4,253 bases of DNA, from IMG/VR virus record IMGVR_UViG_2713896778_000030. One strand, written 5' to 3'. This stretch comes from a virus. Its lineage: Duplodnaviria > Heunggongvirae > Uroviricota > Caudoviricetes. Each line of letters starts with the position of its first letter. The first letter of the stretch is position 1. This document shows positions 448 through 4,253 of this stretch, in pieces. Position numbers and translations under genes: made by a program. The notes below the pieces were generated by a model that saw nothing but the letters and a program-made list of their open reading frames with translations, did not search any database and was not told the DNA's origin.

Positions 448-726
448 TTAGGGAAACTGGCGTCTTGCGTGGATCACGTTTACTACTTCAACGCTTGATG
501 TTGTTACGCGGTATAGAATTATATAGTTAGGGTGGGCTACAATCTCACGCAAGCCAGGTACTCTGTCGCTTGGTGGGTATAAATACGGATGTTCGGATAA
601 CGGCAGCACACAACCCCTTAATCGCTGCCATAAGCGTTCAGCCGCATCTATGTCGAAACGAGCAATATAACTAGTTATATCATCTAGGTCGGTATCTGCG
701 CTTTCAAGCCATAACACGGGTAACAT
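448..726 (-). CDS. parE2: ParE-family type II toxin (RelE/ParE fold), 92 aa
   Basis: Minus-strand ORF with ATG at 726-724 and TAA at 450-448. Protein begins MLPVLWLESADTDLDDITSYIARFD and ends VVNVIHARRQFP; length and N-terminal pattern fit ParE toxins. The start is 1 nt after the antitoxin stop (TAA-a-ATG), with a GGAG Shine-Dalgarno (rc of 739-742) inside the antitoxin 3' end. The symbol is recalled from the three-component paaR-paaA-parE systems of E. coli O157:H7; paralog 1 versus 2 cannot be resolved from memory. Confidence 0.75.
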   Translation of the reverse strand: MLPVLWLESADTDLDDITSYIARFDIDAAERLWQRLRGCVLPLSEHPYLYPPSDRVPGLREIVAHPNYIILYRVTTSSVEVVNVIHARRQFP

Positions 727-727
727 T

Positions 728-919
728 TTACTGCTTGCTCCGTTCCTTGCGCATCTTAGCAAAGCGTTCTGCCATTCTGCGCTCAACTTCGTCATGGGGA
801 ATTGCTGGGCGCGGATCTGCAAGGCTCGTTGCTACTTTCGCACGCAGCCATTCGTTGTAACTGTTTTCTTGTTCAATGGTTTCAAATTCAGAAACCATTG
901 GTGAAAGGGCTCTATTCAT
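728..919 (-). CDS. paaA2: Small antitoxin partner of ParE (PaaA-like), 63 aa
   Basis: Minus-strand ORF with ATG 919-917 preceded by GGAGGA (rc of 923-928) and TAA at 730-728. Protein MNRALSPMVSEFETIEQENSYNEWLRAKVA...KMRKERSKQ is highly charged, as expected for a small disordered antitoxin. It sits immediately upstream of and coupled to the ParE gene. The 63-aa length matches my recollection of PaaA2. Confidence 0.65.
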   Translation of the reverse strand: MNRALSPMVSEFETIEQENSYNEWLRAKVATSLADPRPAIPHDEVERRMAERFAKMRKERSKQ

Positions 920-939: not shown

Positions 940-1311
940 TCAGGCGCGGCGGCATTTTTGCGCCGCAATCCATCTCGCTATGAGATCTTCCATTGATTCT
1001 TTTTTCTGCTTTAACTCGCTGATTATCTGGCGTTGCTCATCCTCAGGGAAGGCTGAAAAAATCTGCAATAATTCCAGTTGATTAGACGTTAACCCTGCAT
1101 GTGGTGGAGAAACCCCCGGTTGTTCTGCGTATTCCGCATCCAGATACCCTTCCGGCATCCCGTATGTTTGCTCTATTCTTCTGGCAGCCTTTTCTCCAAA
1201 CGAGGCTCTCCCACTCATTAGTTGAGATAGGTAGCTCTTCTCTTTGGGTGGCAGAGTTTTATCTTTAAACCACTCCTTGAGACGTAAACGGCGAATTTCT
1301 TTTTTTTGCAT
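940..1311 (-). CDS. paaR2: HTH transcriptional regulator (PaaR-like); putative CI-type prophage repressor, 123 aa
   Basis: Minus-strand ORF with ATG 1311-1309 and TGA 942-940. Protein starts MQKKEIRRLRLKEWFKDK and carries an HTH with recognition-helix-like segment KSYLSQLMSGRASFGEKAARRIEQ. It is first in the operon with the antitoxin and toxin and divergent from a cro-like gene. There is no Shine-Dalgarno; a -10-like hexamer sits 6 nt upstream of the ATG. The upstream in-frame ATG at 1374 would lie inside the divergent promoter region. Confidence 0.65.
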   Translation of the reverse strand: MQKKEIRRLRLKEWFKDKTLPPKEKSYLSQLMSGRASFGEKAARRIEQTYGMPEGYLDAEYAEQPGVSPPHAGLTSNQLELLQIFSAFPEDEQRQIISELKQKKESMEDLIARWIAAQKCRRA

Positions 1312-1711: not shown

Positions 1712-2198
1712 AAATCAAGCATGAACACATCCGCATGGCGATGAATGTCTGGGCGCATCCGGACGGCGAAAAAGTACCGGCTGCGAAAATTACCAAAGCG
1801 TATTTCGAGCNNNNNNNNNNNNNNNNNNNNNNNNNNNNNNNNNNNNNNNNNNNNNNNNNNAAGCGTATTTCGAGCTGGGAATGACGTTCCCGGAACTGTA
1901 TGACGACAGCCATCCGGAAGCCCTGGCCCGTAATACCCAGAAAATTTTCCGTTGGCTGGATAAAGACACCCCTGATGCTGTTGAAAAAATGCAGGCTCTG
2001 TTACCGGCGATCGAAAAGGCGATGCCGCCTTTGCTGGTGGCCCGTATGCGCAGCCACAGTTCTGAATATTACCGTGAGATCGTCGAACGGAGGGAGCGGC
2101 TGGTGAAGGATGTCGATGATTTTGTTGCGTCAGCGGTTGTTTTGTATGACCAGATGAATCGCGGCGGCCCGGCAGGGAATGCTGTGGTGATGCACTAA
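1708..2198 (+). CDS. YdaT-family (CII-like) regulatory protein, interrupted by an N run; about 141 aa once the gap artefact is removed
   Basis: ATG 1708; the N-terminus MKIKHEHIRMAMNVWAHPDGEKVPAAKITKAYFE reads up to the N run. After the N run the sequence (K)AYFELGMTFPELYDDSHPEALARNTQKIFRWLDKD...VVMH continues to TAA 2196-2198 in a frame offset by 2. A 15-mer is duplicated on both sides of the gap. Family assignment is recalled similarity to Rac-prophage YdaT and gene order after the cro-like gene. Confidence 0.6.
1811..1860. other. Assembly or scaffold gap (50 N) with duplicated flanks
   Basis: The 15-mer aagcgtatttcgagc occurs at 1796-1810 and again at 1861-1875. The two flanking reading frames differ by 2, which equals 65 mod 3 (50 N plus one copy of the 15-mer). 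Confidence 0.8.
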
Positions 2199-2220
2199 AA
2201 GCACGGTGTTCGGGGGTTTT

Positions 2221-3183
2221 ATGAGCAGCAAGCTTCATGGTCTTGTCTGGGAAGGGTGCGCCTTCACCGGCATGATCTTATCCAGGGTGGCGGTTATGGC
2301 CCGTCTTGCAGACTACAGCAATGACGAGGGCGTGTCATGGCCTGCCATTGAAACTATCCGGCGTCAGATCGGTGCAAGAAGTGAATCCACAGTGAAATCG
2401 GCTATTGCAGAACTGGCGAAAGAGGGCTGGCTGACGAAGGAAGAGCGTAAGGTCGGTGGGCGTAATGTAAGCAATATCTATCGGCTTAATGTGGAAAAAC
2501 TCGAAGCAGCTGCGGCGGCGGCGCGTGAGTCATATAAACCGAAAAGAAAAATTAGCCCGGCAAAAAATGACCCGTTAACAGTTGACCCGTCAAATATTGA
2601 CCCCTCAACGGTTGACCCGTCAAATTTTGATGGATCAACTGTTGATAAAAAACTGCCGATTAGGGGGGCGATGATTGACCCCGATCCGTCAGTATTAAAA
2701 CCTGATCCGTCAGATAAAAGATCTTCTTGTCCGGACGCTTCGCAACCGGACCCGCAGACGGCTGAACAGGATTTTTTAACCCGACACCCTGACGCGGTTG
2801 TGTTCAGTGCGAAAAAACGCCAGTGGGGAAGTCAGGAAGATTTGGTGTGCGCACAGTGGATCTGGGGACGAATCGTGAGTCTTTACGAGCAGGCGGCCAG
2901 CGATGATGGCGAGATCACTAGACCGAAAGAACCCAACTGGACAGCATGGGCCAATGACGTTCGCACAATGCGGATGCTGGATGGCAGAACTCACAGACAA
3001 ATTTGTGAAATGTTTGGGCGTCTCCAGCGGGATTCGTTCTGGGTAAAAAACATCATGAGTCCGGCAAAACTCCGGGAAAAATGGGATGAACTGGTTATCC
3101 GCCTGGGGCGTTCGCCTGCGCAGCGTTGCGTGAATCACATTTCTGAACCGGACACTGAAATACCGCCGGGCTTCAGGGGGTAA
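2221..3183 (+). CDS. Phage replication initiator (O-like), 320 aa
   Basis: ORF 2206-3183 in the supplied track opens at GTG; the preferred start is ATG 2221, 4 nt after GGGGG. The N-terminal region (LSRVAVMARLADYSNDEGVSWPAIETIRRQIGARSESTVKSAIAELAKEGWL) looks like the winged-helix N-domain of phage replication initiators. A central linker has tandem peptide repeats DPLTVDPSNIDPSTVDPSNFDGSTVD encoded by iteron-like DNA repeats. The C-terminal domain is not recognised specifically. Confidence 0.65.
   Translation: MSSKLHGLVWEGCAFTGMILSRVAVMARLADYSNDEGVSWPAIETIRRQIGARSESTVKSAIAELAKEGWLTKEERKVGGRNVSNIYRLNVEKLEAAAAAARESYKPKRKISPAKNDPLTVDPSNIDPSTVDPSNFDGSTVDKKLPIRGAMIDPDPSVLKPDPSDKRSSCPDASQPDPQTAEQDFLTRHPDAVVFSAKKRQWGSQEDLVCAQWIWGRIVSLYEQAASDDGEITRPKEPNWTAWANDVRTMRMLDGRTHRQICEMFGRLQRDSFWVKNIMSPAKLREKWDELVIRLGRSPAQRCVNHISEPDTEIPPGFRG
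2566..2655. repeat. Candidate replication origin: tandem 15-bp iteron-like repeats inside the initiator gene
   Basis: Head-to-tail 15-bp units: aatgacccgttaaca (2566-2580), gttgacccgtcaaat (2581-2595), attgacccctcaacg (2596-2610), gttgacccgtcaaat (2611-2625, identical to unit 2), tttgatggatcaact (2626-2640), then an A-rich unit gttgataaaaaactg (2641-2655). The core TTGAC-CC-GTCAA has inverted-repeat arms. Related copies (tgaccccgatccgtcag, cctgatccgtcag) lie at 2676-2713. Confidence 0.55.
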
Positions 3184-3224
3184 GTGTTAATTTCTGGTCA
3201 TGAGGTAATTTTCAGGAGGGCTTG

Positions 3225-3274
3225 NNNNNNNNNNNNNNNNNNNNNNNNNNNNNNNNNNNNNNNNNNNNNNNNNN
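3225..3274. other. Gap (50 N) removing the 5' end of the following gene
   Basis: AGGAGG (3214-3219) lies 5 nt before the N run, and an open reading frame resumes at the first base after it (3275). No duplicated flank is visible here. Confidence 0.7.
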
Positions 3275-3553
3275 GAGCTGGTTGCCAGTGGCGATGTATA
3301 CAACTCTGGTTACGGGTTATTCCCGTCTGAACAGGCTCGTAAGGACTGGCAAAATGCCCGCAAAAAACTATCTAGGGCAAAGGTGAAGAAACCATCTGTG
3401 GTTGATCCGGATCTTATCTGGTCATTACCAGACGGAGAAATACGCCGCTACGACAGGCGTCTGAACATAATCTGTAGCGAGTGCCGGAAGAGCGAAGCTA
3501 TGCAGCGTGTACTGGCTTTCTATCAGGGTAATTTTCAGAAGGTGCTGTTGTGA
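3275..3553 (+). CDS. Ren-like protein, 3' fragment (start codon inside the N run)
   Basis: Open frame from 3275 to TGA 3551-3553 encoding ELVASGDVYNSGYGLFPSEQARKDWQNARKKLSRAKVKKPSVVDPDLIWSLPDGEIRRYDRRLNIICSECRKSEAMQRVLAFYQGNFQKVLL. The C-terminal motif N-L-[VI]-x-[KS]-E-C-R-x-S-x-A-M-x-R-V-L-A-x-Y matches my recollection of the lambda Ren C-terminus (NLVFKECRQSAAMKRVLAVY). It sits directly downstream of the replication gene, as ren does in lambda. This rests on memory, not a search. Confidence 0.45.
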   Translation, partial: ELVASGDVYNSGYGLFPSEQARKDWQNARKKLSRAKVKKPSVVDPDLIWSLPDGEIRRYDRRLNIICSECRKSEAMQRVLAFYQGNFQKVLL

Positions 3554-3658
3554 GCCAAATTAACAATCGGAACTTCGTGAAGAGAAAGCATAATCCAAAT
3601 CTGAATAATTAAGTTCAGCACTGTAAATAAAATTTAATCCTTAACTGGAGGTATATTT

Positions 3659-3871
3659 ATGTTAAATACACAGAAAGCCATTAATGCGGAAAAATATAAC
3701 GAGTGGGCAAGAAAATTCTCTGAGCAGATTTTTAAAATTACTGGCGATGAGAATGCGGCAAAAAATGAATTAGAACCGTGGACGCCTGAAGGAGCCGACC
3801 CAAATTATTGCTGGAGGGAGGTTGATCCAGTTGATGCTGCAAATGAAGCTATGAGTTATCACAACGATTAA
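3659..3871 (+). CDS. Small acidic hypothetical protein, 70 aa
   Basis: ATG 3659 preceded by TGGAGG (3646-3651) with a 7-nt spacer; TAA 3869-3871. Protein MLNTQKAINAEKYNEWARKFSEQIFKITGDENAAKNELEPWTPEGADPNYCWREVDPVDAANEAMSYHND has 14 D/E against 7 K/R, with an acidic C-terminal half. The gene is visibly more AT-rich than the replication genes. No family recognised. Confidence 0.5.
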   Translation: MLNTQKAINAEKYNEWARKFSEQIFKITGDENAAKNELEPWTPEGADPNYCWREVDPVDAANEAMSYHND

Positions 3872-3881
3872 TGTCAGGAGG

Positions 3882-3897
3882 CCGCCCGAAAGGGCGG
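3882..3897. other. GC stem-loop CCGCCC-GAAA-GGGCGG
   Basis: Perfect 6-bp G/C stem with a GAAA tetraloop, 11 nt after the stop of the 70-aa gene. There is no U tract on either strand, so it is not a canonical intrinsic terminator; it may be an RNA stability or processing hairpin. Confidence 0.45.
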
Positions 3898-3983
3898 TAA
3901 TGAATGGTCACATTATTTAGAAAAAATATCCGCGAAAGAGTAGAACAACAGAATTTCTGTTTCTCATTCTGTTTATCGTGTTG

Positions 3984-4121
3984 ATGATACCGATATCCCC
4001 GTTAATCCTAGTCTGGATAATCGGAAAAATAATTGAGCCAGTTATTGAATTGTATAACGACGTGGTATGGGCGTCATTCAACACACTGCACAATAAAATT
4101 AATCCGTATAAGGAAAACTGA
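3984..4121 (+). CDS. Small hydrophobic protein, 45 aa as written; probably the distal part of a ~73-aa membrane protein broken at an A6 tract
   Basis: ATG 3984 to TGA 4119-4121 encodes MIPISPLILVWIIGKIIEPVIELYNDVVWASFNTLHNKINPYKEN. The frame is open upstream to 3921 (KKYPRKSRTTEFLFLILFIVL...) without a start codon. An ATG at 3904 in the +1 frame reads MVTLFRK into the A run 3921-3926. The stop overlaps the next gene start (TGA-t-ATG). No Shine-Dalgarno precedes 3984. Confidence 0.3.
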   Translation: MIPISPLILVWIIGKIIEPVIELYNDVVWASFNTLHNKINPYKEN

Positions 4122-4122
4122 T

Positions 4123-4253
4123 ATGGCAACTTTGACAAAAAAAGAACGGGCATGGTTGAACGAATTACAGGAAGTTCTTGATCGCTGTCCATCACCGAAA
4201 AAAATTGGCTTTTACACCATTGGCGATAAAAGCATTTACCTGTATGACCTACG
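4123..4253 (+). CDS. Hypothetical protein, 5' fragment (continues beyond the window)
   Basis: ATG 4123 with AGGA (4111-4114) 8 nt upstream; open to the window end. Encodes MATLTKKERAWLNELQEVLDRCPSPKKIGFYTIGDKSIYLYDL, which has normal globular-protein composition. Not recognised. Confidence 0.4.
   Translation, partial: MATLTKKERAWLNELQEVLDRCPSPKKIGFYTIGDKSIYLYDL

Follow-up and report, generated by a model that had tools for sequence, protein, structure and literature searches.

A DUF4014-family prophage gene very probably knocked out by the loss of one A from a seven-A run at codons 7-8

DUF4014 proteins are small membrane proteins encoded in the early regions of Stx phages and P22-like phages. 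The described genes closest to the locus analysed here are WP_000256993.1 of CB9615, L0067 (AAD25412) of phage 933W and gp77 of phiSTEC1589, which are the same gene in uninterrupted form and carry either seven consecutive A residues (A7) or AAAAGAA at codons 7-8; 933W L0067, phiSTEC1589 gp77 (A7) and the ArgO145 gene are all intact at 72 codons. The phage alleles are 89-93% identical to our sequence at the DNA level and share its length, start, stop and stop-N-ATG junction. In 933W the gene lies in the early-left (ea) region, whereas at our locus it belongs to the early-right operon and is placed after the replication genes. Homologues in epsilon15 (gp46), g341c (gp23), epsilon34 (gp27), ES18 and HK225 belong to the same family with about 50% identity over the full 72 aa, and those of the epsilon15 group are likewise small single-pass membrane proteins of the ea region. 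Unlike its homologues in CB9615, 933W and phiSTEC1589, the allele described here has only six A residues (A6) and is truncated at codon 26.

The names "sugar acetyltransferase inhibitor" and "O-polysaccharide acetyltransferase inhibitor" given to these proteins come from the original annotation of epsilon15 gene 46, as a note in the g341c record indicates. The current epsilon15 record lists gp46 as "hypothetical protein" and the inhibitor label has been withdrawn. Proposed phage acetyltransferase inhibitors were described as "not investigated to date" in a 2022 review (PMC9558356), the epsilon34 paper noted homology alone for its homologue, and our literature search returned no mention of DUF4014, the inhibitor names or 933W L0067. 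DUF4014 homologues are also present in phages that are not known to block acetylation, for example epsilon34 and the Stx phages. The database-propagated inhibitor label is a legacy guess from epsilon15 without experimental basis. Our best guess is that the intact protein has a putative role in lytic growth, in which it would bind a host inner-membrane protein.

The window, meaning the whole 4,253-nt stretch of DNA that was analysed, is a scaffolded draft with two 50-N joins and its locus is part of a lambdoid (Rac-like/Stx-phage-like) prophage. Pieces 1-1810 and 1861-3224 were 100% identical to the Rac-like prophage of O121 strain RM8352, with a true overlap of 15 nt. The third piece (3275-4253) was mosaic, tracking the same prophage to about 3755 and then continuing as an A6-type cassette. 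Read directly, ATG 3904-3906 on the plus strand opened frame 0, which entered the A6 run at 3921-3926 (frame 0 codons TTA TTT AGA AAA AAT), translated as MVTLFRKNIRERVEQQNFCFSFCLSC and reached TGA 3982-3984 after 26 codons. The -1 frame was closed on the upstream side by TAG 3918-3920 and was open from 3921 (KKYPRKSRTTEFLFLILFIVLMIPISPL...) to TGA 4119-4121, with the translation KKYPRKSRTTEFLFLILFIVLMIPISPLILVWIIGKII...KEN. Both frames had been described with these coordinates in an earlier sequence-only reading of the window, and all of them checked out. The same reading proposed that one extra A would fuse the two frames into a 73-aa protein. Adding one A to the run did fuse them into full-length DUF4014, at 72 aa rather than 73. 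The frame 0 stop at 3982-3984 overlaps ATG 3984-3986 of the DUF4014 frame as TGATG (3982-3986), a detail absent from the earlier account, and GTG 3978 and TTG 3981 are likewise in the DUF4014 frame. The features of the locus are as follows.

3904-4121, plus strand: DUF4014-family pseudogene with a 1-nt deletion (Pfam, PHROG, PGAP); A7 would give 72 aa.
3921-3926, plus strand: A6 homopolymer, the frameshift site (alignment A1); AAAAAAA or AAAAGAA in intact alleles.
3904-3984, plus strand: frame 0 remnant ORF; of its 26 codons, 1-7 encode authentic DUF4014 sequence and 8-26 are out-of-frame read-through.
3927-4121, plus strand: -1 frame segment holding DUF4014 residues 9-72 and the stop (hydropathy, AlphaFold, family alignment A2).
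3978-3986, plus strand: possible internal restart codons GTG 3978, TTG 3981 and ATG 3984 (sequence reading).

To identify the product of the fused frames it was compared with curated families. The +1A fusion matched Pfam PF13198 (DUF4014) over profile positions 1-72 of 72 with an E-value of 3.5e-25 and 88.6 bits (cut-off 23.2 bits) and PHROG 1832 over 1-72 of 72 with an E-value of 5.8e-45, a match to DUF4014 far beyond chance. The fragment beginning at the internal GTG scored only 56.8 bits (E 3.1e-15 for the 47-aa fragment), indicating that the homology reaches beyond any internal start, as far upstream as the A-run. In the family alignment of 35 members (A2), residues T3, L4, F5, R6 and K7, which are in frame 0 here, and Y9, P10, R11, S13 and R14, which are in the -1 frame here, were invariant or nearly so, and position 8 was variable (K, E, N or Q). 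The N-terminal motif had residues 1-7 (M-x-TLFRK) in frame 0 and residues 9-14 (YPRKSR) in the -1 frame, and this division of a near-invariant, and therefore functional, motif between both frames pins the frame switch to codons 7-8, that is to the A-run. Every invariant column of A2 was found in the fused sequence, which had the DUF4014 hallmarks of 72 aa, M-x-TLFRK-x-YPRKSR, one hydrophobic helix with P30/P33 and the LHNKINPYKE tail. The frame of the window allele itself was interrupted, shifting after codon 7 and stopping at codon 27. The frameshifted pseudogene status is already known, as PGAP (NCBI) labels identical DNA in RefSeq "DUF4014 family protein, frameshifted" over the exact span 3904-4121. 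A DUF4014 profile search of 1.84 billion representative proteins returned 24 clusters only and the named matches of a protein homology search were all from Escherichia, Shigella or Salmonella, indicating a very narrow family. None of the three cassette proteins had a model in NCBIfam.

Hydropathy of the fused 72-aa protein peaked at 3.0 at residues 19-37. The N-terminal 17 residues contained 6 K/R and 1 D/E, and the C-terminal 28 residues contained 2 K/R and 4 D/E. AlphaFold, run with the 35-sequence alignment, gave helices at 14-28 and 32-66 (mean pLDDT 82) with a break at a conserved M-I-P. The -1 segment consisted of the basic YPRKSR, a hydrophobic helix at about residues 18-44, a C-terminal helix and the conserved LHNKINPYKE tail, and the ancestral 72-aa protein combined a conserved basic N-terminus of net +5, the Pro-kinked hydrophobic helix and the C-terminal helix. 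From these models the DUF4014 protein is predicted to be a single-pass protein of the inner membrane with one Pro-kinked membrane helix in an N-in/C-out orientation, which would leave the N-terminus in the cytoplasm and the C-terminal helix in the periplasm. The earlier proposal of a membrane protein with a positive N-terminus agrees with this prediction, and of its "one or two" transmembrane helices both hydropathy and AlphaFold favoured one.

Alleles of the run were compared by DNA alignment. Intact alleles read AGAAAAGAATAT or AGAAAAAAATAT, giving K-K or K-E at codons 7-8, and the window read AGAAAAAATAT at the same site. Of 5426 complete E. coli genomes, 269-270 carried the A6 allele as an exact 48-nt match; they included O157:H7, O26, O103, O111 and O121 strains and came from many laboratories. 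The A7 allele (80 nt, 100% identity) was present in 17 complete genomes, including O55:H7 CB9615, RM12579 and DEC5 strains. The CB9615 gene is intact and has the same two neighbours in a three-gene cassette (WP_000935420 - DUF4014 - WP_000224233); a comparison over 614 nt showed two differences only from the window, T4012C and one additional A. At least 1000 contigs have a protein on record that is identical to the fused 72-aa sequence. An apparent absence of A7 with a 49-nt query (21-nt flanks) was rejected as an artefact, which we attribute to the BLAST low-complexity filter masking A7 but not A6 and leaving flanks too short to seed; the 80-nt query recovered the 17 exact genomes.

These comparisons bear on whether the window is simply misread at a true A7, an option the earlier reading had left open as a homopolymer sequencing error. 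The window is a scaffolded draft in which one of the two 50-N joins lies between overlapping contigs and the third piece is mosaic, and homopolymers are error-prone. However, window 3397-4253 was 100% identical to complete genomes with A6, among them O157:H7 ECP17-1298, the 979 nt around the A-run held no other anomaly, and two A7 runs 200-280 nt downstream (4137-4143 and 4198-4204) were read as A7. The A6 haplotype also has T4012, unlike its A7 sibling, and with an identical A6 in 270 complete genomes a sequencing or assembly error is exceedingly unlikely. A genuine inactivating frameshift, another option named in that reading, was supported by the intact A7 alleles together with the identical A6 genomes. 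The reading had also held that A6 in multiple isolates with no intact homologues anywhere would count against it. A6 was indeed found in multiple isolates, but intact homologues exist.

A pattern scan of viral contigs gave, among the matches listed, 71 DUF4014 loci, with AAAAGAA at 52, A7 at 12, A6 at 6 and AAAAAAG at 1. All 65 of the non-A6 alleles among these matches were uninterrupted (64 of exactly 72 codons and 1 stop-loss fusion), and 6 of 6 A6 alleles among them stopped at codon 26. One A6 allele (L080) had the SNP background and flanking genes of the A7 alleles L031, L082 and L111, and the A6 allele of the window had the background of the A7 alleles L008 and L119. As these are two distinct A6 backgrounds, each with A7 siblings, the loss from A7 to A6 arose at least two times, which marks the run as a slippage hotspot. 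We conclude that 3904-4121 is very probably a DUF4014-family prophage gene that was inactivated when an A7 run at codons 7-8 lost one A. The majority allele is AAAAGAA (Lys-Glu), which a G-to-A change (Lys-Lys) turns into a perfect A7; replication slippage then shortened A7 to A6 on at least two independent occasions. The locus offers a clean example of a synonymous-looking change from AAAAGAA to AAAAAAA creating a slippage hotspot at which the gene is then repeatedly killed. A7/U7 runs are under-represented in E. coli genes, for which indels and slippage are a plausible reason (Sharma et al., PMC4066793).

In complete genomes the A6 haplotype outnumbered its exact A7 sibling by 270 to 17. This excess may point to a selected OFF state and not to neutral decay, and over-sampling of STEC or clonal or horizontal spread could explain it equally well. 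There were no secondary decay mutations downstream of A6, consistent with a recent event but not in itself proof of loss of function. A rival reading is a contingency-type switch, in which A7 and A6 would toggle the membrane protein and its coupling to the next gene at a useful rate, with OFF favoured in STEC lysogens. The phase-variable genes of Neisseria, Haemophilus and Campylobacter are homopolymer contingency loci, and like them the DUF4014 coding sequence has a mononucleotide run close to its 5' end and both frame states among its close relatives. Homopolymer contingency tracts usually have 8-9 or more units. The run here is short for such a locus at only 6-7 nt, is mostly interrupted, and belongs to an accessory gene of a phage early operon rather than to a cell-expressed surface antigen. 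Both run lengths were found on each of the two independent backgrounds, the OFF allele is common and indels and slippage are known to concentrate at A7 runs (PMC4066793). Elsewhere in the family, members had N-termini from alternate frames of the same 5' DNA (P0109, P0131, P0129 and P0140), again marking the region as an indel hotspot. Weighing against a switch, 52 of the 71 viral-contig alleles among the matches listed were G-interrupted and therefore cannot switch, the 269 exact-match genomes were all fixed for one A6 haplotype with mixed populations unreported, and in the repressed early operon of a prophage ON and OFF would rarely be exposed to selection. We consider such a switch distinctly unlikely. 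A combined version, in which a low-rate ON/OFF switch would have let the OFF state spread in STEC (for example if the intact protein were costly on leaky expression of the prophage early genes), possibly with a 45-aa C-terminal product made by termination-reinitiation at the UGAUG, is also very unlikely.

If the gene is inactivated as we propose, ribosomes starting at ATG 3904 of the A6 allele would make a 26-residue nonsense peptide and halt at TGA 3982-3984. Programmed frameshifting would instead yield the full-length protein from the A6 allele, and was assessed along with transcriptional slippage that adds an A. Programmed -1 sites such as dnaX (A_AAA_AAG), IS911/IS3 and the lambdoid tail chaperone (G/GT) have an in-register heptamer with the rest of the protein in the -1 frame, and the window shares both: A_AAA_AAU at 3921-3927 is an X_XXY_YYZ slippery heptamer in the zero frame of ATG 3904, and a -1 slip on it would yield exactly the A7 protein sequence. 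In contrast to these sites, the locus has no downstream stem-loop or pseudoknot, no upstream Shine-Dalgarno-like stimulator and no conserved two-frame layout, and its A-site codon is AAU in place of the highly shifty AAG of the dnaX heptamer. Folds 3' of the run were no better than shuffled sequence (3927-3990, z = -1.6, 15/200 shuffles as stable; 3915-4000, z = -1.3, 19/200; not significant), and no Shine-Dalgarno-like element was found about 10 nt upstream of the run, where the sequence is TTATTTAG. The two-frame organisation was not conserved among homologues (65/65 non-A6 viral-contig alleles among the matches listed were single ORFs), and each A6 allele had a near-identical A7 sibling. 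E. coli transcriptional slippage requires longer runs, and the hairpin at 3881-3898 stops 22 nt short of the run, a distance too great for it to drive such slippage. Heptamers without a stimulator shift at 2-10 times a background of ~0.055% (Sharma et al., PMC4066793). Full-length protein would then come only from spontaneous -1 slips, at no more than about 10 times that background or a few tenths of a percent. Because unstimulated heptamers are weak and A7/U7 runs are depleted (PMC4066793), we rate programmed recoding as highly improbable.

Restart inside the gene would give a different product from the A6 allele, a functional C-terminal fragment of 45-47 aa begun at GTG 3978 or ATG 3984, for instance by UGAUG termination-reinitiation. 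The overlap of the frame 0 stop with ATG 3984-3986 would suit this, the 47-aa fragment still matched DUF4014, and gene calling in some draft genomes yields precisely the 47-aa protein begun at the GTG (P0016). However, no purine-rich Shine-Dalgarno sequence was found upstream of GTG 3978, TTG 3981 or ATG 3984, and TGATG is not an adaptation, being the V-L-M-I coding sequence of all intact alleles. A start at ATG 3984, as the sequence-only reading had suggested, would drop the near-invariant basic N-terminus and about half (about ten residues, 18-27) of the hydrophobic helix, and the ~14 apolar residues left are too few for a membrane span. We regard a functional restart product as quite improbable. 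Given the slippery heptamer and the TGATG overlap, low-level full-length or C-terminal products from the A6 allele are possible.

The plus-strand frames also had to be weighed against an open frame on the opposite strand, which the earlier reading had named as a possible expressed product.

3917-4195, minus strand: antisense shadow ORF of 92 codons with a GTG start; its ends vary among relatives and it is not considered a gene.

The antisense frame was stop-free in all relatives examined, a point in favour of a real gene there and a spurious plus-strand reading. The third codon positions of the sense and antisense frames coincide, and the two were judged by conservation of ORF boundaries. The plus-strand ORF has a fixed length of 72 codons with a conserved start, ribosome-binding site, stop and junction, and its product matches curated families end to end, whereas the ends of the antisense ORF wander (91-133 codons) into the unrelated genes flanking DUF4014. 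The antisense ORF had no family match and no PADLOC match at E <= 0.1, no GGAG-like Shine-Dalgarno sequence was present ahead of its GTG (reverse complement of 4196-4215), and the neighbouring genes are all on the plus strand. The ORF at 3917-4195 is a shadow ORF, and we give next to no credence to a minus-strand gene.

The pseudogene lies between two genes for acidic proteins, and its flanks contain the following features.

3659-3871, plus strand: upstream cassette gene, 70 aa, WP_000935420.1 (acidic, pI 4.5, PHROG 4659).
3876-3898, plus strand: AGGAGG at 3876-3881 and, directly after it, a G+C-rich hairpin at 3881-3898 (7-bp stem, GAAA loop), 5 nt before ATG 3904.
4110-4125, plus strand: junction with AAGGA 4110-4114 in the DUF4014 tail, TGA 4119-4121, one base and ATG 4123-4125.
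4123-4253, plus strand: beginning of the downstream gene, which continues beyond the window end; its complete product, WP_000224233.1, has 87 aa (acidic, pI 4.9, PHROG 1714).

The stop was described earlier as overlapping the next start. The stop-N-start layout held, but there is no overlap, one base lying between the two codons (TGA-T-ATG). TGA-(A/T)-ATG with AAGGA was found at 63/63 scorable junctions of 72-codon alleles among the matches listed, leading into at least three different downstream gene starts. As the junction is kept despite differing downstream genes, the translational-coupling layout is a conserved feature, and the junction is probably a mosaic joint. In the A6 context the termination-reinitiation coupling of intact alleles would be lost, and the downstream gene should still be translatable because it keeps its own AAGGA ribosome-binding site. 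The membrane protein and the acidic downstream protein had been proposed as a two-gene exclusion or abortive-infection module. This found no support: PADLOC at E <= 0.1 gave no match for the fused DUF4014, the 70-aa upstream protein or the 87-aa downstream protein, the downstream partner gene differs between phages, and the cassette sits inside operons of the early lytic phase, which for the DUF4014 gene of 933W, g341c and MG40 means the ea region, with no promoter-like site of its own found on the plus strand.

Under the inactivation we favour, the broken cassette would have spread among STEC prophages through the usual mosaic recombination. Loss of DUF4014 would probably be tolerated because it is an accessory early-operon gene, and a second, intact copy may often be present in another prophage of the same genome. 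RM8352 has both intact and broken copies: its Rac-like prophage carries an intact AAAAGAA allele, and another of its prophages carries the A6 cassette. In itself the event, a homopolymer frameshift that disrupts an accessory gene of a prophage, is ordinary and of little weight, and it makes natural ON and OFF alleles of a DUF4014 gene available for functional tests.

The hairpin ahead of the gene, at -16.9 kcal/mol and z = -3.2, was more stable than all 200 shuffles (0/200 as stable). It has no U-tract and is therefore not an intrinsic terminator, in agreement with a terminator scan that returned nothing at 3876-3898. Rfam at permissive E-values over the window gave two chance miRNA-like matches only, both away from the locus. 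The hairpin was kept in alleles with the same upstream junction, with a G-U-compatible change in ArgO145.

The translation start of the DUF4014 pseudogene, ATG 3904, lies downstream of two elements on the same stretch (3876-3906):
3876-3881, consensus AGGAGG, 22 nt upstream of ATG 3904
3881-3898, hairpin with a GAAA tetraloop, between AGGAGG and ATG 3904

Fold computation indicated that the hairpin was very stable (-16.9 kcal/mol, z -3.2). Once folded, it would give AGGAGG normal spacing to the start codon, a 'split SD' layout similar to that of T4 gene 38. Alternatively, GGGCGGU in the 3' arm of the hairpin is itself a near-consensus ribosome-binding site that would be sequestered in the stem. 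In contrast to the window, 933W-type alleles lack the hairpin and carry a normal AAGGAG in its place.

The N-termini of some DUF4014 family members (P0109, P0131, P0129 and P0140) corresponded to the same 5' DNA translated in the other two frames, returning to the DUF4014 frame ahead of or inside the hydrophobic helix. These look like either compensated double frameshifts or the use of a start codon outside the DUF4014 frame; one of them, P0109, was present on 74 contigs. A further allele (L074, IMG/VR contig IMGVR_UViG_2778261223_000007) had lost its stop codon; its ORF continued past the 1-nt spacer and entered the next gene, producing a natural fusion over the stop-N-ATG junction. Two uninformative or unsupported names for the family are spreading in databases. 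'O-polysaccharide/sugar acetyltransferase inhibitor' goes back to an epsilon15 annotation that was later withdrawn, and 'released from the phage upon host infection' is the label in PHROG; we looked for an experimental basis for either name and found none.

The same type of slippage-prone tract that broke DUF4014 occurs twice, intact, among the first 28 codons of the downstream 87-aa gene:
4137-4143, A7 run
4198-4204, A7 run

Depletion of A7 runs has been reported in E. coli genes (PMC4066793).

E. coli O121 RM8352 carried an intact DUF4014 gene (the AAAAGAA allele, WP_000209148.1) and an A6 pseudogene in separate prophages of one genome (L130 and L131), and therefore the loss of a single copy may be buffered by the other. 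Comparison of the window with L130 and L009 placed a joint within the window:
~3640-3756, mosaic joint

As far as 3755, the window matched the Rac-like prophage of O121 at 100% identity; beyond that point it showed 38 differences, because there it carries the A6-type cassette known from other prophages. The joint reflects either genuine recombination or a short-read contig that is chimeric across a shared stretch of 116 nt.

Two 50-N runs in the window are scaffold joins (regions 1796-1875 and 3225-3274). The 15 nt preceding the first run (1796-1810) recurred after it (1861-1875), and both flanks mapped contiguously onto O121 RM8352 with the same 15-nt overlap. In the RM8352 reference, 143 nt occupy the place of the second run. 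It follows that the window derives from a scaffolded draft assembly.

Elsewhere in the window, annotation of the identical O121 locus identified a toxin-antitoxin pair, which adjoins a repressor-like gene:
448-919, minus strand, RelE/ParE toxin and RelB antitoxin pair
940-1311, minus strand, prophage repressor-like gene

The pair also adjoins cro-like/YdaT genes.
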